Below are positions 36,168 to 47,237 of a DNA stretch of 64,000 nucleotides, one piece after another. This stretch comes from Candidatus Levyibacteriota bacterium (lineage in GTDB: Bacteria > Patescibacteriota > Microgenomatia > Levybacterales > UBA12049). The notes beneath the pieces are model-generated. The model did not search any database, had not been told where the DNA came from, and saw only the letters and a list, made by a program, of their open reading frames with translations. Position numbers and translations under genes: made by a program. Position 1 is the stretch's first letter; each line of letters starts with the position of its first letter. The DNA lies in NCBI GenBank assembly GCA_016432345.1, contig CP066685.1, positions 240,236 through 304,235 on the forward strand. Reading direction: 5' to 3'.

Positions 36168-36493
36168 AACATTTTTACAGTCATCTTATCGAAACTTCAA
36201 CTCTTAGTCTGGCGCTTGGAGATATGGAATTATCACAAGTTGAGCGTTTAGAACTACTTTCTCTTGCGCACGAAAATCTCCATCATGCGGTTTTGGACAC
36301 TGTGCTTTCCGAACTTTCAGAAAACGATAAGAAATTATTTCTACAACATTTGGCAGTTGATAATCACGATAAAATTTGGGAATTATTAAAAAGCAAAGTA
36401 GAAAATATAGAAGAAAAAATTAAAAAAGCAGCAGAAAGTTTAAAAGAAGAATTACACAAAGATATTTTAGAAGCAAGACATAAAAAAAATTAA
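36164..36493 (+). CDS. Hypothetical helical protein
   Basis: An ATGA overlap couples it to the upstream gene. No recognisable motif. Confidence 0.4.
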   Translation: MKHFYSHLIETSTLSLALGDMELSQVERLELLSLAHENLHHAVLDTVLSELSENDKKLFLQHLAVDNHDKIWELLKSKVENIEEKIKKAAESLKEELHKDILEARHKKN

Positions 36494-36930
36494 ATCCTAA
36501 TGCGGTAGCGTTTGGTGAAGGATTTGCCGGATGCAAGAGTTCCTGTAACTTCAAAAATTGCATTTGTAATATTAGTGTGATAGCGGCAGATATTTTTTGA
36601 ACAGGTGCCAAATAAAAGCTCGCGACTTGCACTGCTTCCTTCGTCTTTTCTAACCGATCCACCAGCTCCTTCTTCCCTACCTTCGGTTCGGTAGATCAGT
36701 GCATAGGATACATTTGAGGCGTTTTGCAGATTGCTAAAGTAAACAAGAAGCGCTTTTCGGTCTCGTCTTAATTTCGGCGAAACACTAATTCCTACTGTTT
36801 TTCCAGATGAATTTATTACTTTTTTAGCAGTTCCCGCAGATTTTGCCTGCGGCAAAACCTTTGCCGAAGCTTCAAAGGGAAAAAGAAAAGAAACAAAAAG
36901 TAAGATTGTTGTTAGAATTAGTGTTTTCAC
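36490..36930 (-). CDS. Hypothetical secreted protein
   Basis: Signal peptide MKTLILTTILLFVSFLFPFEASA. Convergent with the upstream + strand genes. Confidence 0.5.
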   Translation of the reverse strand: MKTLILTTILLFVSFLFPFEASAKVLPQAKSAGTAKKVINSSGKTVGISVSPKLRRDRKALLVYFSNLQNASNVSYALIYRTEGREEGAGGSVRKDEGSSASRELLFGTCSKNICRYHTNITNAIFEVTGTLASGKSFTKRYRIRI

Positions 36931-36962
36931 ATTAATAAGTATATCATATGGGTTTTAATTTT

Positions 36963-36971
36963 TGGTAGAAT
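36963..36971 (+). promoter_or_regulatory. Extended -10-like element TGGTAGAAT upstream of the RhuM-family gene
   Basis: A TGnTAnAAT match 30 nt upstream of ATG 37001. Confidence 0.35.
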
Positions 36972-37000
36972 AGAGATGATGCTTTAGTATTAATATAAAT

Positions 37001-38002
37001 ATGATGAAAAATAAATTACCAGAAAATCAAATAATTATTTACGAAACAGATGATGGGAAAGCTCGTATTGATGTTCGTTTTGAAGAAGAAAATGTTTGGT
37101 TGACGCAAAAATTGCTAGCAGATCTGTTCGGCACTACAACGGCAAACATCAACATGCATCTTAAAAACATATTTCAACAAAAAGAACTTGATGAAAATTC
37201 AGTTATTAAGGATTTCTTAATAACTGCTTCTGATAGAAAGCAGTACAGGGCAAAACATTATAACCTGGAAGCAATTATTGCTATTGGGTATCGCGTTAAT
37301 TCAAGTCGTGGCACATTATTCCGTCAATGGGCAACCGAACGATTAAAAGAATATATTGTCAAAGGTTTTACTCTTGATGATATGCGTCTTAAGCAGGGTG
37401 GGCATAAGTCTCGATATTTTGAAGAGCTGTTACAGAGAATTCGCGACATTCGAAGTAGTGAGCGGATGTTATATCAAAAAGTAACCGATATTTACGCGAC
37501 ATCTATTGATTATCGGAAAGATGCTAAAGAGACTGATATTTTTTTCAAAACCGTGCAGAATAAGATGCACTATGCTGTAAGCGGTAAAACTGCTGCTGAA
37601 ATTATAACGGAACGAGTTGATAAAAATAAAAAGAATCTCGGTCTGACAAACTTTTCAGGTTACCATCCAATTAAAAGAGATATCTATATAGCGAAAAATT
37701 ATCTTTATGAAGAAGAGCTGAAAATGCTTAATCGTATTGTTGATGCTTATCTTTCTTTTGCCGAAATTCAGGCGATAAGCGAGAAAACAATGATAATGAA
37801 AGATTGGATTAAAAAACTTGATGAGTATCTTATGCTTATGGGTAAAGGCATATTAAAAAATGCCGGCAAGGTAAGTATGGAAGAAGCGCAAGGTAAAGCA
37901 GACGAGGAATTTTTGGAAAGCAAAAAATCAGAGGATAAAAAGTATGTTTCTGATTTTGACCGCGAGGTAAAAAAGCTGTTAAGAATGAAGAAAGAAAAAT
38001 AA
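37001..38002 (+). CDS. RhuM family protein
   Basis: N-terminal IIIYETDDGKARIDVRFEEENVWLTQKLLADLFG...NLEAIIAIGYRVNSSRGTLFRQWAT is typical of the RhuM family. Confidence 0.75.
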   Translation: MMKNKLPENQIIIYETDDGKARIDVRFEEENVWLTQKLLADLFGTTTANINMHLKNIFQQKELDENSVIKDFLITASDRKQYRAKHYNLEAIIAIGYRVNSSRGTLFRQWATERLKEYIVKGFTLDDMRLKQGGHKSRYFEELLQRIRDIRSSERMLYQKVTDIYATSIDYRKDAKETDIFFKTVQNKMHYAVSGKTAAEIITERVDKNKKNLGLTNFSGYHPIKRDIYIAKNYLYEEELKMLNRIVDAYLSFAEIQAISEKTMIMKDWIKKLDEYLMLMGKGILKNAGKVSMEEAQGKADEEFLESKKSEDKKYVSDFDREVKKLLRMKKEK

Positions 38003-38034
38003 ATCTATTTCTGATAAAATAACAAGAAACAATT

Positions 38035-38112
38035 ATGTCAGTTTTTGATAATTTTACCAACCGCTACTCCCTCTCCAAAACCCTGAGGTTTGAGCAACAT
38101 ATAACTCTTTAG
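38035..38112 (+). pseudogene. cas12a: cas12a (cpf1) 5'-terminal remnant: 20 homologous codons, then 5 unrelated codons and a stop
   Basis: Encodes [20 protein letters not shown]|QHITL*. Recalled Cas12a N-termini include Fn [23 protein letters not shown] and Lb [23 protein letters not shown]. Confidence 0.75.
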
Positions 38113-38164
38113 GATTGTTTAGCTCGTAGTATCTTACAAGCTTCGTTTTTGTTAGAATTACATT

Positions 38165-40675
38165 ATGCAAAAAGAAGCTAAGGCAAGGATTAAAATTAAT
38201 GAACTTCTCAAAAGTTCAGGCTGGCGTTTTTTTGATGATGAAAAAGGTAAAGCAAACATAGTTTTGGAAAACAATGCAAAAGTCACCAAACAGGCTATAG
38301 ACGAATTCGGCAATGATTTTGAGAAAACACAAAAAGGGTTCATTGACTTTTTATTACTTGATGAAAAGGGTTTTCCGTTTGTAGTTTTGGAGGCAAAATC
38401 CGAGGATAAAGACCCACTTGACGGTAAAGAGCAGGCTCGTCGTTATGCCCAATCGCAAAATGTTCGTTTTATTATTCTCTCCAATGGCAACCTGCATTAT
38501 TTTTGGGATTTAGAACGGGGTAATCCGTCCGTTATTATTACGTTTCCATCTTATCAATCACTTAAGCACTCCGAATCGTTCAATCCGAGTTTTTTGACAC
38601 TTGCCGAAGAAAAGGTTGAAAACGACTACATACTTCTCACTCAAAACCCAAATTATCAAAAAGACCCGCGCTGGATAGATAAAACCCAAAAAGAAGCTTT
38701 AATAAAAGAGCAAGATTTGAAGTTATTACGACCATATCAATTAGCAGCAATTCACACTTTACAAAACGAAGCCAAGAAAGGCAATGATAGATATCTTTTT
38801 GAAATGGCTACCGGTACAGGCAAAACTCTTATTTCCGCAGCAGTTATCAAATTATTTCTCAAGTCCGGCAACGCAAAGCGAATTTTATTTTTAGTTGATC
38901 GTTTGGAATTGGAAGATCAGGCGTGGAAAAACTTCGCTAAGATTTTAAAAAACGACTACACATGTGTTATCTATAAAGGAAATCGTGATGATTGGCGTAA
39001 GGCAGAAGTTGTTGTTTCCACAGTACAAAGTTTGTCATTCAACAGCAAATATAAAAAACTCTTTAGTCCGACAGATTTTGATCTGATTATTTCTGATGAA
39101 GCGCATCGTTCTATTGGTGGCAACAGCCGTGCCGTATTTGAGTATTTTGTCGGTTATAAATTAGGACTTACTGCCACCCCAAAGGATTACCTTAAAAACA
39201 TTGACCCCCAAAAATTAAGCGAGAAAGATCCCCGATCATGGGAACGTCGTCAGCTGTTGGATACTTATCAAACATTTGGTTGTGAATCGGGCGAGCCAAC
39301 ATTCAAGTATAGTTTGCTTGATGGTGTTAAAGATGGATATCTGGTAAATCCTATTGTTGCGGATGCAAGGACAGAAATAACAACAGAACTTTTATCCGAA
39401 AAGGGCTATTCTTTAATCGTTGAGAACGATGAGGGTATTGAAGAGGAGCAAGTTTTTTTTCAAAAAGATTTCGAGCGTAAATTCTTTTCAGACAAAACAA
39501 ATAAAATCTTTTGCAAAACATTTTTGGAAAATGCACTTAAAGACCCAGTAAGTGGAGAGATTGGAAAATCAATCATTTTCTGTGTTAGTCAAGCACACGC
39601 ATCAAAAATTACTCAAATTCTTAACGAGTTTGCAGATTCACTTTGGTCTGACAAATATAACTCTGATTTTGCTCTACAAATTACTTCAAATATCGGTGAT
39701 GCACAACAATTCGTAATTAACTTTTCAGATAAAAGCAATAACCTCAATGGTCATACAAAATGGCTTGAAAATTACAAATCAAGCAAAACCAGAGTATGCG
39801 TAACTGTTGGTATGATGACGACTGGTTATGATTGTCAAGATATATTAAACATTTGCATGATGCGTCCCATTTTTTCTCCTACCGATTTTATTCAAATCAA
39901 AGGACGAGGGACACGTAAATATACTTTTAAATACAAAGACAGCGAAAATGAAATAATTTCTACCGAAAAAGCTACTTTCAAACTTTTTGACTTTTTCGCC
40001 AATTGCGAATACTTCGAGAAAAAATTTAACTACGACCAAGAATTAAAACTACCTATCGGTAAAGGAACTGGTGGTAGCGGTGGTGGAGGGATTGATATAG
40101 ATGAGGTAACAGTTGCCACACCAGACCCGCTTAAAACACTTACCCAAACCCCCATAGGATTAGCCGGTATGAAAGTGGATTGGAAGTTCTTTGAAAAGTT
40201 TGAATCTGTGGTCAAAAACAATTCTGTTGTCAAACAAAAATATGAACAAGGAGATATTTCCGGTATTGAGGAATATGTAAAAAACGAGATCTTTGAAAAG
40301 CCAGAGGACTATTTCAACTTGGAGAAACTTCGTAAATCAGTAAAGGCAGACCGCCGCATTAGCTTAAAAGAGATACTGGAGAAAATCTTCGGCGGAATAA
40401 ATAAATTTAAATCTAAAGATGAATTACTGGAAGAGGAATTTGAAAAGTTTGTTACAATTTACAAACCGGAAAGTAAATATGTTCTCCCAATTAAAAATTA
40501 TCTTAAAGCGTATATAACCGACTCCGAAATTCGGGACATTGTTGAGAGAAAAGAATACAGCCGTTTTGCCACTAATCCCAAAGTTACAATGAGAGACTTT
40601 AAAGAATTAAATGGCTATCGCGAAATTGTGCCGGAATATGTCAAAGATTATGTTTCTATTAACACTTATTTGTAA
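38165..40675 (+). CDS. hsdR: Type I restriction enzyme R subunit (HsdR)
   Basis: N-terminal PD-(D/E)xK (FIDFLLLDE..VVLEAKS). SF2 motifs MATGTGKT, ISDEAHRS and QIKGRGTR. The C-terminal helical region is EcoEI-R-like. Confidence 0.85.
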   Translation: MQKEAKARIKINELLKSSGWRFFDDEKGKANIVLENNAKVTKQAIDEFGNDFEKTQKGFIDFLLLDEKGFPFVVLEAKSEDKDPLDGKEQARRYAQSQNVRFIILSNGNLHYFWDLERGNPSVIITFPSYQSLKHSESFNPSFLTLAEEKVENDYILLTQNPNYQKDPRWIDKTQKEALIKEQDLKLLRPYQLAAIHTLQNEAKKGNDRYLFEMATGTGKTLISAAVIKLFLKSGNAKRILFLVDRLELEDQAWKNFAKILKNDYTCVIYKGNRDDWRKAEVVVSTVQSLSFNSKYKKLFSPTDFDLIISDEAHRSIGGNSRAVFEYFVGYKLGLTATPKDYLKNIDPQKLSEKDPRSWERRQLLDTYQTFGCESGEPTFKYSLLDGVKDGYLVNPIVADARTEITTELLSEKGYSLIVENDEGIEEEQVFFQKDFERKFFSDKTNKIFCKTFLENALKDPVSGEIGKSIIFCVSQAHASKITQILNEFADSLWSDKYNSDFALQITSNIGDAQQFVINFSDKSNNLNGHTKWLENYKSSKTRVCVTVGMMTTGYDCQDILNICMMRPIFSPTDFIQIKGRGTRKYTFKYKDSENEIISTEKATFKLFDFFANCEYFEKKFNYDQELKLPIGKGTGGSGGGGIDIDEVTVATPDPLKTLTQTPIGLAGMKVDWKFFEKFESVVKNNSVVKQKYEQGDISGIEEYVKNEIFEKPEDYFNLEKLRKSVKADRRISLKEILEKIFGGINKFKSKDELLEEEFEKFVTIYKPESKYVLPIKNYLKAYITDSEIRDIVERKEYSRFATNPKVTMRDFKELNGYREIVPEYVKDYVSINTYL

Positions 40676-40677
40676 AT

Positions 40678-40869
40678 ATGAAAAAACAAAAAACAGGTTG
40701 CAGACATGATTATAAAAACGCCATTCAAGTTGGAAATGTTGATTATCAATGCCGTCTTTGTGGTGGACTTCTTGATCCAGGCGAGTGGTTTCTGATGAAT
40801 AGTTTTGAATTTATAGATGTGGATGTAAAAAGAGAAACAAAAATAAAAAAAGATAATAAAAAAAGATAA
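40678..40869 (+). CDS. Small Cys-containing (zinc-ribbon-like) protein with a Lys-rich tail
   Basis: 63 aa, tightly packed between hsdR and hsdMS (3-4 nt gaps). Contains C-x-H...CxxC (CRHD...CRLCGG). Confidence 0.5.
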   Translation: MKKQKTGCRHDYKNAIQVGNVDYQCRLCGGLLDPGEWFLMNSFEFIDVDVKRETKIKKDNKKR

Positions 40870-40873
40870 TATT

Positions 40874-43351
40874 ATGCTTAATCAAGAAACCAAACGAAAA
40901 ATTGATTCTGCCCGCGACATTTTAGTTGGCAAAGTCCCGGATCCAAAGGCCCAAGTTGAACAAATCACCACAGCTTTAATCTATAAGTTTATGGATGACA
41001 TGGACAAGACATCGCAAGAACTAGGTGGTAAGGCTAGATTTTTCACTAATGGTTACGAAAAATACGCGTGGACAAAATTGATGGATGCCAAACTGGGTGG
41101 ACACGAGAAACTCGATCTGTATATGGAAGCACTTGCTAAACTTTCTTTAAATCCCCATATTCCCCAATTATTCCGTGATATTTTCAAAGATGCATTTCTA
41201 CCCTATCGTAATCCTGAAACTCTAAGTTTATTTTTGAAAGAAATAAACGGTTTTACTTACGAACATAGCGAGGATCTAGGGGATTCATTTGAATACTTAC
41301 TTTCGGTTTTGGGAAGCCAGGGAGATGCAGGACAATTCCGAACTCCTCGGCACATTATTGATTTTATAGTAGATGTCGTTAACCCCAAAAAAGATGATAC
41401 CATCTGCGATCCTGCTTGTGGCACTGCTGGTTTTTTAATTTCTGCCTACAAACATATACTCAAACAGCATGATGGAAAAAATGACCCTGAAAACAAAGAA
41501 AAACCACTTACCCCAGATGAACGAAAAAAACTCATGGATCATTTTACAGGTTATGACATTAGCCCAGATATGGTTCGACTCTCGAGAGTTAATTTATATC
41601 TGCATGGGTTTCCCAATCCGACGATTTACGAATACGACACGCTTTCAAGTGAGGAAAAATGGGATGAAAGTTTTGATGTAATGCTTGCTAACCCTCCGTT
41701 TATGACTCCCAAAGGGGGTATCAAACCGCATAAGCGTTTTAGTGTTCAAGCCAATCGTTCCGAAGTTTTATTTGTGGATTACATTTTAGAACACCTACGT
41801 CCAAATGGCCGTGCGGGTATTATTGTGCCGGAAGGAATTATTTTTCAATCAGGCAATGCTTATAAACAACTCCGTAAGTTATTAGTCGAAGAAAATTATC
41901 TGTGGGCTGTAGTGTCACTTCCCGCTGGAGTATTCCAGCCTTATTCGGGGGTTAAAACTTCAATTTTGTTTTTAGACCGTGAACTTGCAAAAAAATCAGA
42001 TTCAGTCGTATTTATGAAAGTCAACAATGATGGGCTTGACTTGGGAGCCCAAAGAAGGGAAATAAAAGAAAATGATTTACCAACAGCTTTAATGCTATTG
42101 AATAGTTATAAGAAAAATATTACTTCAAATAATTTACCACAAACCAATGATCTGGAAACATTAACAAAGAATACAATTTCAATTTTTGTACCCAAATCTA
42201 AGATTCGAGAACTCGGTGATTATTACCTGACTGGAGAACGATATAAAGAAATTAACGAGCTAAAAAATCAAAAATGGCCTATGGTGGAGTTGGGTGATAT
42301 TTGTATAGTTTTAGATAGTAAACGAAGACCAGTAACAAAAGCAGACAGAAAATCTGGAAAATATCCTTATTATGGTGCAACAGGCATATTGGATTATGTT
42401 GATGGGTTTTTGTTTGACGAAAAACTTGTATTAGTTGGAGAAGATGGAGCTAAATGGGGTAAAGGTGAGAAAACTGCTTTTATTGCTGAAGGTAAATATT
42501 GGGTGAATAATCATGCACATGTTATGCGACCCATAAGAGACAGACTTATTGATGAATACCTTGTGCCAGTTCTTAATTCAATGGACTTAACACCATATAT
42601 TACAGGAGTGACAGTCCCAAAGTTGAATCAGGAAAGGTTGAGGTCAATAAAAATCCCTTTACCACCGATTGAGGTACAAAAAAAAATAGTTGAGGAAGTA
42701 GAAAGTTACCAGAAAATTATTGACGCTGCTAAACAGATAGTAAACAGTTGGAAACCTGAAATTGAGATAAATACTGCTTGGGAGCTAAAAAAAATCAGTG
42801 AGGTGGCTGAAATTAATCCTTCAAAACCTAAATTTAAAGAATGGGATTTAGATAAAGACGTCTTTTTCTTACCAATGTCAGTACTCGATACGAATTCTCC
42901 TAACCCGAAAAAAATGGAAAAAAGAAAACTGAAAGAAGTTATAAATGGTTACACCTGTTTTAAAAATGATGATGTGTTGTTGGCGAAAATTACCCCATGC
43001 TTCGAAAATGGAAAATCCGGAATTGTAAAGCTAGACGGTGTTGGGTTTGGATCAACAGAGTTTATTGTGATTAGAGCAGATAGATCAAAAGTTGAACCGC
43101 TTTGGTTATGGTATTTTATTTTTTCAGATAGTTTTAAAATAAACGGTATTCCAAAAATGTCTGGTTCAGCAGGGCAAAAAAGATTACCTGTAACTTACGT
43201 TGAAAATTATGAAATTCCGGTGCCGAACCTTGAAACACAAAAAGCAATAATAGCTACACTTAAACTCAATTATGATTATATAAAAAATACTAAAGAAAAT
43301 ATAATTCCCCAATTAGAGCAAAAGATTCAGGCTGTGCTGGAAGAAATATGA
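40874..43351 (+). CDS. hsdMS: Type I R-M methyltransferase-specificity fusion (HsdM-HsdS in one polypeptide)
   Basis: AdoMet motif DPACGTAGFL and catalytic LANPPFM. From about aa 470 there are two HsdS TRDs (WPMVELGDICIV...; WELKKISEVAEI...), each followed by a conserved helix (PLPPIEVQKKIVEEVE; VPNLETQKAIIATL). Confidence 0.85.
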   Translation: MLNQETKRKIDSARDILVGKVPDPKAQVEQITTALIYKFMDDMDKTSQELGGKARFFTNGYEKYAWTKLMDAKLGGHEKLDLYMEALAKLSLNPHIPQLFRDIFKDAFLPYRNPETLSLFLKEINGFTYEHSEDLGDSFEYLLSVLGSQGDAGQFRTPRHIIDFIVDVVNPKKDDTICDPACGTAGFLISAYKHILKQHDGKNDPENKEKPLTPDERKKLMDHFTGYDISPDMVRLSRVNLYLHGFPNPTIYEYDTLSSEEKWDESFDVMLANPPFMTPKGGIKPHKRFSVQANRSEVLFVDYILEHLRPNGRAGIIVPEGIIFQSGNAYKQLRKLLVEENYLWAVVSLPAGVFQPYSGVKTSILFLDRELAKKSDSVVFMKVNNDGLDLGAQRREIKENDLPTALMLLNSYKKNITSNNLPQTNDLETLTKNTISIFVPKSKIRELGDYYLTGERYKEINELKNQKWPMVELGDICIVLDSKRRPVTKADRKSGKYPYYGATGILDYVDGFLFDEKLVLVGEDGAKWGKGEKTAFIAEGKYWVNNHAHVMRPIRDRLIDEYLVPVLNSMDLTPYITGVTVPKLNQERLRSIKIPLPPIEVQKKIVEEVESYQKIIDAAKQIVNSWKPEIEINTAWELKKISEVAEINPSKPKFKEWDLDKDVFFLPMSVLDTNSPNPKKMEKRKLKEVINGYTCFKNDDVLLAKITPCFENGKSGIVKLDGVGFGSTEFIVIRADRSKVEPLWLWYFIFSDSFKINGIPKMSGSAGQKRLPVTYVENYEIPVPNLETQKAIIATLKLNYDYIKNTKENIIPQLEQKIQAVLEEI

Positions 43352-43767
43352 ATGTAGAAAAATACAAGGAAGATTTGAAAAGAGAGGTATCCAAAAAAAA
43401 GAGTGAGGGTTATCAATTTATTCCTATCATTTCGGGAGCAACATCTTTATATTTTCTACAAAGAATTATTTTTTCGAATTTACCGTACGATAAATTTATA
43501 CTTGCAATTGGTGCCGTTTTGATAGTTTTTGGAATTTCTGCTTTTCTTTTTTGGTCACTAAAAAGAGCCGAACAAGACAAAGATAAGTATTTATTAAGTA
43601 CGGTTGGCAAAATTGTAGAGGATGTGTTTAAGCATTACGGAGTATCTATGGCGAGTAACGCAGCTGGTCCAACAACAGCTAATCAAATGAATCCAATTAT
43701 GCTAACTATTGTAGACTTAGTAAGCGGTCTAAAAGAGCTAATGCAGAAAAGCTATACAAAAAACTAA
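43348..43767 (+). CDS. Hypothetical 2-TM membrane protein, translationally coupled to hsdMS
   Basis: Its ATG overlaps the hsdMS TGA. Two hydrophobic helices. No recognisable motif. Confidence 0.5.
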   Translation: MNVEKYKEDLKREVSKKKSEGYQFIPIISGATSLYFLQRIIFSNLPYDKFILAIGAVLIVFGISAFLFWSLKRAEQDKDKYLLSTVGKIVEDVFKHYGVSMASNAAGPTTANQMNPIMLTIVDLVSGLKELMQKSYTKN

Positions 43768-43807
43768 ATACATAATTTTAGAAGTTCAGGTATAATAAAT
43801 TAACAAT

Positions 43808-44173
43808 ATGCCAAGTCTACAAGTTAATTGGGTTAAAAATTCAAATAATAATCAGTGGTTTGATCTTTTGAGGCTTGATCTCAATGCGCCTTATTTTCTG
43901 AATAAGGAAGGGGTTTATATTTTATGGTACTCTAGTCCGTCAGGAGCGAAAGTAATACGAGTTGGTCAAGGAGATATTGGGAGCAGATTAAGGGAACACA
44001 GGAGTAATCCAGAAATTTTAAGATACTCTAGCTATGGACAATTAAAAGTTACCTGGGCATTAGTAGATTCGCAGTACAAAGATGGGGTAGAAGCATTTTT
44101 ATATGATTCTTATAGTCCTTTAATTGGTGAAAGGTCACCTGCTGCCCAACCTATTTCGGTAAATCTAATATGA
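43808..44173 (+). CDS. GIY-YIG-like domain protein (hypothetical nuclease)
   Basis: GVYILWY..(x9)..VIRVGQG..GSRLREHRS...GVEAFLYD follows the GIY-x(9-11)-YIG-R...E spacing. Confidence 0.45.
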   Translation: MPSLQVNWVKNSNNNQWFDLLRLDLNAPYFLNKEGVYILWYSSPSGAKVIRVGQGDIGSRLREHRSNPEILRYSSYGQLKVTWALVDSQYKDGVEAFLYDSYSPLIGERSPAAQPISVNLI

Positions 44174-44649
44174 TAAATTGGGTTGATGTAGCAAAAACCT
44201 TTCTTGAAAGTCTATTAGGACCTTTAGTTGTTGGTTTAGTTATTTGGCGAGTTGGGAAAAATGAAGTTGATAAGAGAATTAAAAATGAGGCAATAAGAGA
44301 TTTAATGACTTTTAGAGGTGATTATTCTTCTCCAGAATTTCGTCGATCGCTTAACAAAGTTTCGATTACATTCCATGGAGATGAAGCGATCAGGCAGCAA
44401 ATTCGTGATTTATACGAGGATATCAATAATCCGGGTAACTCGGAAACAAATATAAATAGAAAAATAGTTGGGTTAATATACAATTTATGCAGAAAGAATG
44501 GTTTTGGTGGTATTACTGAATATGATATTGACCAATCATTCCCAGAACAAAAACAAACACCTACTTCAACTTTAACTCCTACTTCACACCAAGTTTTACA
44601 GGATAAACCTAAAATTCCAAAAAATGGAAAGAATAAGAAAACAAAATAG
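44170..44649 (+). CDS. Hypothetical membrane-anchored protein with a T/P/K-rich tail
   Basis: ATGA overlap with the upstream gene, and an N-terminal TM segment (LLGPLVVGLVIW). No recognisable motif. Confidence 0.45.
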   Translation: MINWVDVAKTFLESLLGPLVVGLVIWRVGKNEVDKRIKNEAIRDLMTFRGDYSSPEFRRSLNKVSITFHGDEAIRQQIRDLYEDINNPGNSETNINRKIVGLIYNLCRKNGFGGITEYDIDQSFPEQKQTPTSTLTPTSHQVLQDKPKIPKNGKNKKTK

Positions 44650-44705
44650 TTTAAGTGACTAATTATTATAATTTAAGCAGAAAATAAATGTGTATGAAAG
44701 ATGAA

Positions 44706-44741
44706 CTCAAATACCAATAGCACATTTCTACTTTTGTAGAT
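44706..44741 (+). CRISPR. Single orphan type V-A (Cas12a-type) CRISPR repeat
   Basis: The 3' part ATTTCTACTTTTGTAGAT (44724-41) matches the conserved V-A handle UCUACU-N3-5-GUAGAU. No second repeat occurs within the window. Confidence 0.6.
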
Positions 44742-44745
44742 CTAG

Positions 44746-44754
44746 TGGTATACT
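44746..44754 (+). promoter_or_regulatory. Extended -10-like element TGGTATACT upstream of the 44765 gene
   Basis: A TGnTATACT match 11 nt upstream of the ATG, immediately after the orphan repeat. Confidence 0.3.
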
Positions 44755-44764
44755 AGAGCAGATA

Positions 44765-45373
44765 ATGAAAAATCCAAATGTTGTGCGGTTTGTTGGTCTT
44801 GGGGTAGTAATAATAATGCTTGTTGCTTTTGGCATTTTCTTTTTTTCCTCTTCAAAAAAATCTGATCCTGTTCCTTTGCAGCAAAATGTACCGGTGGAAA
44901 CAAAAAAATCTCCATCTCTTACAACAAAAACTTATGTTGACGATGCAGGATTTCAATTTGATTACCCAGATGATTTGACTGTTGCTAAAAAAGACAACAC
45001 AAGTTCTGTTACATATTCATCTTTAGAAATTGTATCAAAAGAGGTATCTGGATCTATGTTTTTTCTGGTTGAGGACACCAAAGCTAAATCTGTTGACGAA
45101 TTGGTAGAGAAAAATACGACAACAAAAGAAGCAGCACTTGGAAGTTTGGAGGCTATAGAAGTAACAGGTGGCGATAAAACGACACTTTTTGCCATTGATC
45201 AAGGGATACTTTTTCAAGTAACTCTTTATAGAGCAACAGACAAGTCGTATTGGGATGGTGTATACCAAACAATTATTTCGAGTTTTTCCTTTGTTGCTCC
45301 TGCCGCAAGTTCTCAAAGTTCTTCGGATAGCGACAATAATGATGTAGTTCAAGAAGAGGATATTATTGAATAA
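44765..45373 (+). CDS. Hypothetical membrane-anchored protein
   Basis: An N-terminal TM segment, then a soluble domain and an acidic Ser-rich tail. Overlaps the tkt start by 8 nt. Confidence 0.5.
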   Translation: MKNPNVVRFVGLGVVIIMLVAFGIFFFSSSKKSDPVPLQQNVPVETKKSPSLTTKTYVDDAGFQFDYPDDLTVAKKDNTSSVTYSSLEIVSKEVSGSMFFLVEDTKAKSVDELVEKNTTTKEAALGSLEAIEVTGGDKTTLFAIDQGILFQVTLYRATDKSYWDGVYQTIISSFSFVAPAASSQSSSDSDNNDVVQEEDIIE

Positions 45374-47237
45374 TATGAACCAAAATAATAGCTGGAAAGC
45401 TAAGGCAACCTTAATTCGTAAATGGTCTCTTGTTTCAACATCTGCAGCAGGTTCTGGACACCCCACCTCTTGTATGTCGGCAGCAGATTTAGGAACAGTT
45501 TTATTTGATAAATATTTTTGTTTTGATATTAAAAATCCCAAGAATCCAAATAACGATCGGTTTGTTTTATCCAAAGGCCACGCATCACCACTTTTATACG
45601 CGCTTTTTGCCATGAGCGGAGGACTCAAAATTGAAGAACTAAAAACCTTGAGAAAATTTGGCAGTCGTTTGGAAGGACATCCAACACCACGATTTCCATA
45701 TGCCGATGTTACTACGGGTTCGCTTGGTCAAGGTTTATCTGTAGGCGCAGGAATGGCATTTTCAATTCATAATTCAGAATTCAGAATTCAGAATTTGCCT
45801 AAGGTGTATGTACTTTTGGGGGATGGCGAGTTGGCAGAAGGCAGTGTGTGGGAAGCGGCAAATTTTGCTTCTTATTATAAATTGAATAATCTTATTGCCA
45901 TTGCCGATATCAATGGTTTGGGGCAGAGTCAGGAAACAATGTTTAATCATCATATCAATGAATATACCGATCGTTTTTCGGCATTTGGCTGGGAAGTAAT
46001 TGCTATTGATGGTCATGATTTTTTGGAAATTGATAAAGCATTATCACTGGCTGTTAATAATAAATCGGATAAGCCGTTTGTGATTATTGCCAAAACAGAA
46101 AAAGGCAAAGGCGTTTCTTTTTTGGAGGGAAAAAATGGATGGCATGGGAAGCCGCTTAAAAAGGATGAATTAGAAAAAGCGTTGTTGGAGTTGGGAGAGG
46201 TTTCGGATGATTTAAGATTTACGTTGAAGTTGCCTAGAGAATCGCAGACTGATACAAGGTCACACCTTGTACAAGGTGCGACCTTAACAAATCCCCCTTA
46301 TAAAAAGGGTGAGGAAGTTGCAACACGGGAAGTGTATGGACAAGTTTTGGCAAAGCTTGGAGATAGCAATACTTTAATATATGCTTTAGATGGCGATACG
46401 AAAAATTCTACATATTCTCAGGATTTCTTAAAAGCTCATCCGGATAGGTTTATTGAATGTTTTATTGCCGAGCAAAATATGGTGGGTGTGGCAACAGGAC
46501 TTTCTACACAAGGAAAAATTCCATTTGTATCAACGTTCGCCGCGTTTTTAACAAGAGCGTTTGACCAAATAAGAATGGCTGCGGTTTCAAAAGCCAATGT
46601 AAAGTTTGTTGGTTCGCATGTTGGTGTTTCGATTGGAGAAGATGGGCCATCGCAAATGGGACTTGAAGATATGGCTATGTTTGGCGCTCTTCCTGATTCT
46701 ATTATTTTACACCCATCAGAAAGTGTATCAACAGCCAAACTTTTGCCGCAGATGGTATCCCATGTTGGTATTTCGTATCTTCGAACCTTGCGAGCAAAAA
46801 CAGCGGTTTTGTATGATAATAATGAAGAATTTGTTGTCGGTGGTTCAAAAATTCTCAAAAGATCAAAAACAGATATACTAACTGTTGTGGCTGCGGGTAT
46901 CACTGTTTTTGAGGCGCTTAAAGCATACGATATACTAAGAAGTGAGGGTATAATAATACGTGTTGTTGATTGTTATTCGGTAAAGCCAATCGATGACAAA
47001 ACGTTAATTAAGAGTTTAAAAGAGACAAAGAAAAAAATTATTATTACTGTTGAAGATCATTTTGAGCATGGCGGTTTGGGGGATTTTGTTTTGGATGCTG
47101 TTTCTGAAACAGGAGTACATGTTATAAAAATGGCAGTTAATCATATTTCTCGTTCTGGGACAAAAGATGAGGTTATGGAAGATGCCGGCATTACAGCGAA
47201 ACATATTGTTGAAAAAGTAAAAAAACTAATTGATTAG
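45366..47237 (+). CDS. tkt: Transketolase, with the N-terminal (TPP-binding) and C-terminal (Pyr + C-terminal) sections fused in one ORF
   Basis: N-terminal half: SGHPTSCMSAADL, GSLGQGLSVGAGMA, LLGDGELAEGSVWEA. C-terminal half: ATREVYGQVLAKLG, FIAEQNMVGVATGL. The linker at about aa 285-320 contains the palindromic element. Confidence 0.88.
   Translation: MNNMNQNNSWKAKATLIRKWSLVSTSAAGSGHPTSCMSAADLGTVLFDKYFCFDIKNPKNPNNDRFVLSKGHASPLLYALFAMSGGLKIEELKTLRKFGSRLEGHPTPRFPYADVTTGSLGQGLSVGAGMAFSIHNSEFRIQNLPKVYVLLGDGELAEGSVWEAANFASYYKLNNLIAIADINGLGQSQETMFNHHINEYTDRFSAFGWEVIAIDGHDFLEIDKALSLAVNNKSDKPFVIIAKTEKGKGVSFLEGKNGWHGKPLKKDELEKALLELGEVSDDLRFTLKLPRESQTDTRSHLVQGATLTNPPYKKGEEVATREVYGQVLAKLGDSNTLIYALDGDTKNSTYSQDFLKAHPDRFIECFIAEQNMVGVATGLSTQGKIPFVSTFAAFLTRAFDQIRMAAVSKANVKFVGSHVGVSIGEDGPSQMGLEDMAMFGALPDSIILHPSESVSTAKLLPQMVSHVGISYLRTLRAKTAVLYDNNEEFVVGGSKILKRSKTDILTVVAAGITVFEALKAYDILRSEGIIIRVVDCYSVKPIDDKTLIKSLKETKKKIIITVEDHFEHGGLGDFVLDAVSETGVHVIKMAVNHISRSGTKDEVMEDAGITAKHIVEKVKKLID
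45771..45795 (+). repeat. (AATTCAG)x3.5 heptanucleotide tandem repeat inside tkt
   Basis: AATTCAGAATTCAGAATTCAGAATT, translated as NSEFRIQN, in the loop preceding VYVLLGDGE. Confidence 0.9.
46256..46288 (+). repeat. Palindromic element copy A (33 nt, in-frame in the tkt linker)
   Basis: AAGGTCACACCTTGTACAAGGTGCGACCTTAAC. One arm mismatch. Translated as RSHLVQGATLT. Confidence 0.9.

Follow-up and report, generated by a model that had tools for sequence, protein, structure and literature searches.

Probable remnants of an erased type V-A CRISPR-Cas locus at both ends of a type I restriction-modification cassette in a Candidatus Levybacteria genome

Introduction

Loss of CRISPR-Cas systems, orphan repeats, and turnover at defense hotspots are well established. 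It is also established that related strains can hold alternative defense systems at a single chromosomal position, known as a defense island or hotspot, and in some Escherichia coli strains a type I-F system is reduced to remnants that keep only a repeat or a leader. Here, we analyze a 64-kb stretch of DNA (the window, to which all positions refer unless a locus is named) out of the ~760-kb contig CP066685.1. The source is a metagenome-assembled groundwater genome of Candidatus Levybacteria, which belong to the Candidate Phyla Radiation (CPR); its closest transketolase relatives are also Levybacteria. Between positions 38035 and 44741, the window contains what we read, with a probability of roughly 85%, as two relics of one type V-A (Cas12a) locus, namely, the start of cas12a and the last repeat of the array, with a type I restriction-modification (R-M) cassette in its place.

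The locus resembles orphan or degenerate CRISPR loci, in which a residual repeat marks a former CRISPR-Cas position that related strains still have. It differs from them in that both extreme ends survive and in that the host is a CPR bacterium. Like a defense hotspot, the site is empty in some relatives and loaded in others, with a RhuM-family gene (PADLOC candidate family PDC-S05), a DinD-like gene (PDC-S13), type I R-M genes, or type V-A remnants. Unlike described hotspots, however, no integrase, transposase, or flanking direct repeats were found in it, and apparent scars of the previous occupant were left. With the type V-A loci of CPR bacteria (loci L103 and L102, see below), the window shares the Cas12a N-terminal motif, the 36-nucleotide (nt) repeat family, order, strand, and overall span, but it keeps only codons 1-20 and one repeat, with no REC, RuvC, or Nuc domain, and the genes flanking its relics are unlike those of L103 and L102. 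The type of event is itself already known; the merit of this example is how clean the scar is and that it sits in an uncultured CPR lineage.

Results

The first 20 codons of cas12a are preserved

An initial annotation, made from the sequence alone, had proposed that positions 38035-38094 encode the first ~20 residues of Cas12a and that the homology ends abruptly, with a stop five codons further on. Both proposals held up. The open reading frame (ORF) starts with an ATG at 38035, comprises 25 codons, and stops at 38110-38112. A Cas12a profile hidden Markov model (HMM) was built from 89 full-length Cas12a proteins and run against the 2,466 stop-to-stop segments of the six-frame translation of the window; the searches for Cas remnants were all conducted in this 64-kb window. 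There was one match, at 38035-38094, which was significant (26.5 bits, E value of 2.2e-7, HMM positions 1-22); the second-best segment had an E value of 0.43. When the 25-amino acid (aa) peptide was compared by phmmer to the sequences of the Protein Data Bank, 25 of 26 matches were Cas12a-family nucleases, a few of them deposited under other names. Residues 1-20 of the query paired with the extreme N-terminus in nearly all matches (best E value, 1.2e-3).

The likeness extends to the DNA. The stub was identical to the cas12a start of locus L104 (L104:1547-1606) at 53/60 nt (88%), with the alignment ending exactly at 38094, and it was 80% identical to the cas12a start of L103, with an alignment that also stopped at 38094/38095. 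Using the Cas12a protein of L102 as a query, we retrieved 94 Cas12a relatives and compared their N-termini with the stub. The best among them were P0103 (18/20 residues identical), encoded in L104, and P0027 (17/20), encoded in L103; both pass the NCBIfam Cas12a model TIGR04330. The N-terminus of the L102 protein itself was identical at 15/20 residues.

Downstream of the stub, no Cas12a continuation was found when all frames of 38095-38164 were read directly. A Pfam search with the 25-aa peptide gave no match, and a degenerate DNA pattern for a 14-residue stub peptide had no match in viral contigs. A chimeric 40-aa query consisting of the stub and a consensus continuation was uninformative, returning only 14 short fragments that were ranked by the artificial part.

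A complete solitary type V-A repeat lies 6.6 kb downstream

At 44724-44741, the 18-nt stem-loop motif ATTTCTACTTTTGTAGAT had been assigned to the conserved end of type V-A repeats. The type V-A identity stood, but the extent had to be revised: the relic is a whole 36-nt repeat, CTCAAATACCAATAGCACATTTCTACTTTTGTAGAT (44706-44741), of the type that is ~36 nt long and ends in a UCUACU-N3-5-GUAGAU stem-loop. A 5-bp stem-loop, UCUAC/GUAGA, was predicted in it. The repeat matches arrays located next to cas12a: it was identical at 34/36 positions to the 12 repeats of L102 and to those of L099, and at 32/36 positions to the 12 repeats of L103. It departs from its relatives in the variable 5' part, and its 3' stem-loop is intact; the 3' part common to this repeat family, CATTTCTACTTTTGTAGAT, is invariant. 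A related scaffold, AAUUUCUACUGUUGUAGAU, serves in the literature as the standard handle of Cas12a CRISPR RNAs (crRNAs) and was used in 31 papers.

Given the base composition, the chance expectation of the exact 18-mer in the window is 1.6e-5. As first noted, there is one copy only. This motif is the sole one in the window even at 3 mismatches, and the full repeat is present as a single copy even with 11 mismatches allowed. Tandem Repeats Finder detected no CRISPR array (at least two repeats with spacers) in the window, and no Rfam family was found for the repeat.

The related arrays were discovered via viral contigs. A loose pattern gave one match, in L098, with 36 nt ending in GTAGAT and 34/36 positions identical to 44706-44741, and this match was then used to design a metagenome scan. 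The scan yielded two contigs, L099 and L102, which each contain 12 copies of CTCAAATACAAATATCACATTTCTACTTTTGTAGAT, 61-63 nt apart.

In length, the 27 nt before the solitary repeat agree with the spacers of L102 and L103 (25-30 nt), and they could be the last spacer of the lost array; 19 of them (44687-44705) are identical in locus L014. The similarity of the putative spacer to L094 was suggestive over 29 nt (p ~0.013, for a region chosen after the fact), and the homology between the window and L094 upstream of the repeat was not significant when the whole intergenic region was considered. No protospacer for the putative spacer was found in viral contigs, and the spacers of L102 and L103 matched neither the phage fragments examined nor the window.

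Single repeats of the same family were also seen in phage-like contigs. An intergenic copy is located at L098:7534-7569, on the same contig as L101:10035-10070 (IMGVR_UViG_3300020171_000072/Ga0180732_1000371), and a further copy at L100:3156-3191 (Ga0180007_10022864). Downstream of the repeat, the two phage contigs have small ORFs that are related. L098/L101 and the host array L102 stem from the same metagenome (Ga0180732). These repeats are candidate RNA anti-CRISPRs (Racrs) or solitary repeat units against a CPR-type Cas12a (see Camara-Wilpert et al. 2023, PMC10651486).

One intact locus matches both relics in order, strand, and span

Locus L103 (JGI Ga0395807_0000191) matches the window at both ends, with 17/20 residues of the Cas12a N-terminus and 32/36 nt of the repeat. 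Its order is ftsZ, cas12a (P0027), cas4, cas1, cas2, and then 12 repeats of CTCAAATATAGATAGTACATTTCTACTTTTGTAGAT. Measured from the cas12a ATG through the last repeat, the locus spans 6,569 nt in L103 and 6,707 nt in the window, and order and strand are the same. The two relics, both on the plus strand, are thus colinear with and homologous to one type V-A subfamily.

Two other loci contributed partial comparisons. L102 (Ga0180732_1004385) contains a 1,149-residue C-terminal part of cas12a, a split cas1, and an array after cas2; its cas1 consists of two ORFs (L102:3945-4965), and cas4 is absent. In L104, cas12a (encoding P0103) is located directly 3' of a DinD-like gene that shares ~80% identity with the gene found before PsbP2 in L094 and L096; L104, L094, and L096 belong to one sequencing project. 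This DinD-like gene (L104:628-1457) is also split. Judged by eye only, the gene that follows L104 cas12a is Bro-N-like and not cas4. The type V-A loci of L102 and L104 may themselves be eroding. The cas12a gene of L108, with 17/20 identical N-terminal residues, was set aside as a comparison because of its GC-rich, unrelated context. Directly 3' of it, where cas4, cas1, and cas2 normally sit, is an ORF of 1,189 aa (L108:5075-8644) without a Pfam match.

The interior is a type I R-M cassette

The features of the region are given in Table 1. The interior between the relics had been described as hsdR, a Zn-ribbon ORF, hsdMS, and small genes, and Pfam and PADLOC searches confirmed HsdR, the HsdM-S fusion, and the DUF6680 protein and, outside this interior, RhuM, the PsbP_2-like protein, and transketolase. 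HsdR is predicted to consist of a nuclease N-terminal region and a superfamily 2 helicase, and the fusion protein of HsdM and an HsdS with two target recognition domains. Instead of the classic three-gene layout of type I R-M systems, the window thus has an M-S fusion. In PADLOC, the fusion protein matched MTase_I (E value of 1e-99) and Specificity_I (4e-74), and HsdR matched the NCBIfam EcoAI-family R subunit with an E value of 9e-69, below the curated cutoff. As to the Zn ribbon, the cysteine pattern was recovered, but the 63-aa ORF had no match in Pfam, PADLOC, or NCBIfam. In the 121-aa ORF, a GIY-YIG-like motif (GVYILWY ... VIRVGQG ... RL.EH) was noticed by eye, and its product could be a small nuclease of the cassette.

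Table 1. Features of the variable site and its flanks in the window
Feature	Position	Strand	Basis
146-aa gene, left core gene	36490-36930	-	Synteny
Left half of the ancestral intergenic spacer	36931-36954	.	TAATAAGTATATCATATGGGTT aligns with L095 and L097 spacers
Variable defense island, ~7.8 kb, bounds good to ~3 nt	36955-44744	+	Alignment with empty sites
RhuM-family gene, PADLOC candidate defense family PDC-S05	37001-38002	+	Pfam PF13310, E 1.4e-101; PDC-S05, E 1e-132
Probable cas12a relic, start codon and codons 2-20	38035-38094	+	HMM, PDB matches, DNA identity to L104
Five-codon tail (QHITL) without relation to Cas12a, and stop	38095-38112	+	Intact genes go on L-K/R-P here
hsdR, type I restriction subunit	38165-40675	+	Pfam ResIII, HSDR_N, Helicase_C; PADLOC REase_I, E 8.5e-57
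63-aa ORF, C-x-H ... C-x-x-C, possible zinc ribbon	40678-40869	+	Translation
Fused hsdM-hsdS, 825 aa	40874-43351	+	Pfam N6_Mtase, E 4e-54; two Methylase_S domains
139-aa ORF with hydrophobic stretches	43348-43767	+	Translation; no significant family (Pfam, PADLOC, NCBIfam)
121-aa ORF	43808-44173	+	Translation; no Pfam, NCBIfam, or PADLOC match
DUF6680 protein, 159 aa	44170-44649	+	Pfam PF20385, E 6e-7
Possible last spacer of the array before its loss, weakly supported	44679-44705	+	Length fit, partial L014 identity
Complete solitary type V-A repeat, probable terminal repeat of the lost array	44706-44741	+	34/36 to L102 and L099, 32/36 to L103, 36/36 to L014
Right half of the ancestral spacer, conserved TGGTATACT element 5' of PsbP2	44745-44764	+	Alignment of relatives
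PsbP_2-like membrane-anchored protein (HYV37_01590), right core gene	44765-45373	+	Pfam, Levybacteria synteny
tkt, transketolase	45366-47237	+	Follows PsbP2

The absence of a cas12a body, cas1, cas2, and an array, as initially stated, was borne out. Apart from the missing array, tblastn of the window with the Cas12a, Cas1, and Cas2 proteins of L102 gave no significant match (cas4 was not queried separately), and the Cas12a HMM revealed no remnant beyond 38035-38094 in the six frames. The ORFs of the island belong to other families or to none. Because it contains neither an effector nor an array nor adaptation genes, we regard the locus as a relic of a type V-A system and not as a member. For the same reason, CRISPR immunity from this locus should be gone, and judging by its genes the locus would now encode R-M defense instead.

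Consistent with the first description, no transposase, integrase, or significant flanking direct repeats were found: neither Pfam nor PADLOC detected an integrase or transposase among the island ORFs. Two candidate duplications were discarded. A duplication flanking the island (TAGAGAT and GGTAGAA, left edge versus right flank) was at chance level, and a 15-nt direct repeat (D11, at 36906 and 38146) was judged to be a chance match. The base composition of the cassette is not distinct from that of its surroundings. Look-ups of the exact PsbP2, RhuM, DUF6680, and HsdR proteins returned the same strain and arrangement only and no other context.

Variable content between the 146-aa gene and PsbP2

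In relatives, the backbone order is g35319, g36164, the minus-strand 146-aa gene, PsbP2, and tkt. The site is empty in L095, L097, and L111, where an uninterrupted gap of 38 nt (L095 and L097) or 58 nt (L111) separates the 146-aa gene from PsbP2; L016 and L026 are also without the island. Comparison with the empty sites shows that the island starts before RhuM and ends 3 nt after the repeat. The RhuM gene at 37001, which had been chosen as a flanking anchor, therefore falls inside the island. At the left edge, TAATAAGTATATCATATGGGTT aligned with the L095 and L097 spacers at a score reached by 9 and 19 of 3000 shuffles, respectively. At the right edge, GTGGTATACT-like sequence was found at empty and occupied sites alike (L014, L094, L096, L097, and L111). 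By eye only, the TGGTATACT element reads as a -10 element.

Where the site is occupied, its content differs. A DinD-like gene (PDC-S13) is located directly 5' of PsbP2 in L096. In L094, a DinD-like gene (PADLOC PDC-S13) is followed by a 183-aa ORF and then by a decayed repeat, CTCAAATGATGATACATCTCTACTTTTATAGGT, the stem of which is lost; none of 2000 shuffles scored as well (0/2000). In L014, a repeat identical to that of the window precedes PsbP2, and the contig ends 19 nt upstream of this repeat. The window has RhuM, the cas12a stub, the R-M cassette, and the repeat. Thus, the proposed fixed hotspot is supported by empty sites and by other cargo. The 183-aa ORF of L094 (L094:672-1223) has no family match and represents further hotspot cargo.

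In more distant Levybacteria, rearranged, unannotated ORFs of recurring sizes lie between the anchors, with no sign of a comparable island, and none of 80 tkt-anchored loci in species-representative genomes had cas12a at the site. The syntenic comparison yielded a variable site with repeats in L014 and L094, but no intact locus from cas12a to the array. Taken together, L014, L094, and L104 would place type V-A loci at this variable site within the clade.

The right edge of the island shows a mosaic of identity

L014 is the closest relative by tkt (79% aa identity). Its first 55 nt are 100% identical to 44687-44741 of the window. In the alignment of 44687-45313 with L014:1-720, the 230 nt after the repeat, which include the 5' half of PsbP2, are 75-92% identical. 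Identity falls to ~50% within the 3' half of PsbP2, and tkt shows 65-85%. At 70-73%, L014 PsbP2 is nearer to those of the empty-site loci L095 and L097 than to that of the window (56%). The complete identity of the 55 nt exceeds what a neutral, vertically inherited relic should show, and it speaks for a recent transfer or recombination event or for selection. The mosaic fits recent recombination or transfer across lineages, with a suggested recombination tract where the island ends on the right. That L014 starts exactly 55 nt before the first mismatch may reflect an assembly-graph branch of co-assembled strains sharing the upstream sequence.

Junctions and upstream regions

The left junction, 38094/38095, reads ...AGGTTTGAG up to the breakpoint and CAACATATAAC... 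after it; the right junction is somewhere in 44650-44705. The RhuM stop codon and the stub ATG are 32 nt apart, and 52 nt separate the stub from hsdR. A simple scan revealed no sigma-70-like site on the plus strand of the 32-nt gap, in which only an extended -10-like TGATAAAAT (38012-38020) was seen by eye. The sequence 5' of the stub ATG is not similar to the regions upstream of the L103 and L104 cas12a genes. Because RhuM, the stub, and hsdR are co-oriented with such short gaps, read-through from RhuM is as plausible as the proposed reuse of the old cas12a promoter by the R-M operon.

Discussion

We propose the following course of events. The lineage would have carried a type V-A locus between the 146-aa gene and the PsbP_2-like gene, with cas12a, probably adaptation genes, and an array that ended, with its last repeat, next to the PsbP2 promoter region. 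Roughly 6.5 kb, beginning with codon 21 of cas12a and reaching into the last spacer or ending just in front of it, would then have been lost. In its place there is now a 6.6-kb cassette with hsdR, a small Cys-containing ORF, the fused hsdM-S, and three small ORFs. This may have happened by one illegitimate replacement or by an insertion followed by deletions. In this putative order of events, we infer a swap in one illegitimate-recombination event. Of the initial view that one defense system was overwritten by another, the two colinear type V-A relics with R-M genes between them are thus retained, and overwriting in a single step has the status of an inference. The 25-codon ORF and the repeat are presumably inert.

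Several observations weigh against this reading. On no contig did we find an intact type V-A locus between the two core genes; the link of type V-A systems to the site is drawn from the repeats of L014 and L094 and from the indirect adjacency of a DinD-like gene and cas12a in L104. A donor of the R-M cassette was not found in the exact-protein look-ups. Between the window and L014, identity is 100% in the repeat plus the preceding 19 nt and 50-92% in neighboring sequences, which is more conservation than a neutral relic should show. Finally, a second type V-A system is conceivable elsewhere in the genome, beyond the 64 kb of the ~760-kb contig; 0 of the 94 Cas12a matches sit on a contig of ~760 kb.

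The identity with L014 also bears on the possibility that the solitary repeat, together with at least 19 nt before it, is no inert fossil but a functional unit that is kept by selection or was brought by the island. It could then serve as a Racr-like RNA decoy against the Cas12a of competing elements or as a crRNA-like regulatory RNA beside the PsbP2 promoter; even then, the cas12a stub could be a genuine relic. The repeat is complete with an intact stem-loop, the 100% identity of 44687-44741 in L014 is embedded in flanks of 50-92%, and the phage-like L098/L101 and L100 hold one copy of the repeat family, which agrees with the host array L102 at 36/36 positions. Moreover, solitary type V-A repeats inhibit Cas12a experimentally (PMC10651486). 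The window copy resembles a Racr in being a single CRISPR-like repeat without adjacent cas genes, of a family that is also single in L098 and L100. In contrast to the carriage of Racrs by viruses or plasmids just 3' of a promoter, however, it is chromosomal and lies between core genes, and no promoter was detected: a simple sigma-70 scan, possibly ill-suited to promoters of CPR bacteria, revealed no promoter-like site on the plus strand of 44500-44900. The L094 copy is decayed and has lost its stem, as expected without selection, and no Cas12a partner was detected in the window by tblastn or HMM. The L014 identity can be explained by recent recombination as well. The position and orientation of the repeat are exactly those of a terminal repeat, and the other end of the locus is also kept. 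We therefore consider a functional repeat unlikely.

Far less credible are two further explanations. The stub ORF could be a chance likeness or an independent small gene, and the 18-nt motif a chance hairpin or terminator; each element is short, and neither a Pfam match for the peptide nor an Rfam family for the repeat exists. This is refuted by the HMM result (2.2e-7, with the next segment at 0.43) and by the 53/60 nt shared with a real cas12a start. It is also refuted by the extension of the 18-mer (chance expectation, 1.6e-5) to 34/36 nt of real arrays and by the colinearity with L103, one intact locus that matches both elements in the right order and strand. Similarly, an assembly or binning chimera of a CRISPR-bearing and an R-M-bearing strain comes to mind, since the source is a metagenome-assembled genome and CRISPR arrays commonly break assemblies. 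Yet both junctions recur unchanged across independent assemblies. The left one (RhuM, stub, hsdR) is present in six contigs and the right one (DUF6680, repeat, PsbP2) in at least seven; these contigs were independently assembled from different runs of two series (SRR12113xxx and SRR43434xx), and one 14-kb contig spans the whole island. We consider this explanation refuted, too.

If the two elements are relics of one type V-A locus, the region gives base-level breakpoints of one defense system displacing another in CPR bacteria (Levybacteria) that cannot be cultured. Since both ends are kept and the interior is another defense system of near-equal length, the breakpoints are unusually easy to read. 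The hotspot is documented by versions of a single intergenic site that are empty, carry other cargo, or contain relics. What is known of CRISPR or R-M biology does not change. For annotation, the locus is a warning against taking cas12a stubs of this kind for small genes.

Both the Cas12a stub of 20 codons and the solitary repeat can serve as search handles for other erased type V-A loci. Very short database ORFs that correspond to the Cas12a N-terminus only were observed: P0013 (37 aa, on a 93-kb contig), P0014 (49 aa, on a 22-kb contig), P0009 (64 aa, on a 7.6-kb contig), and P0006 (43 aa). Either frameshifts in cas12a or additional erased type V-A loci like the present one could account for them.

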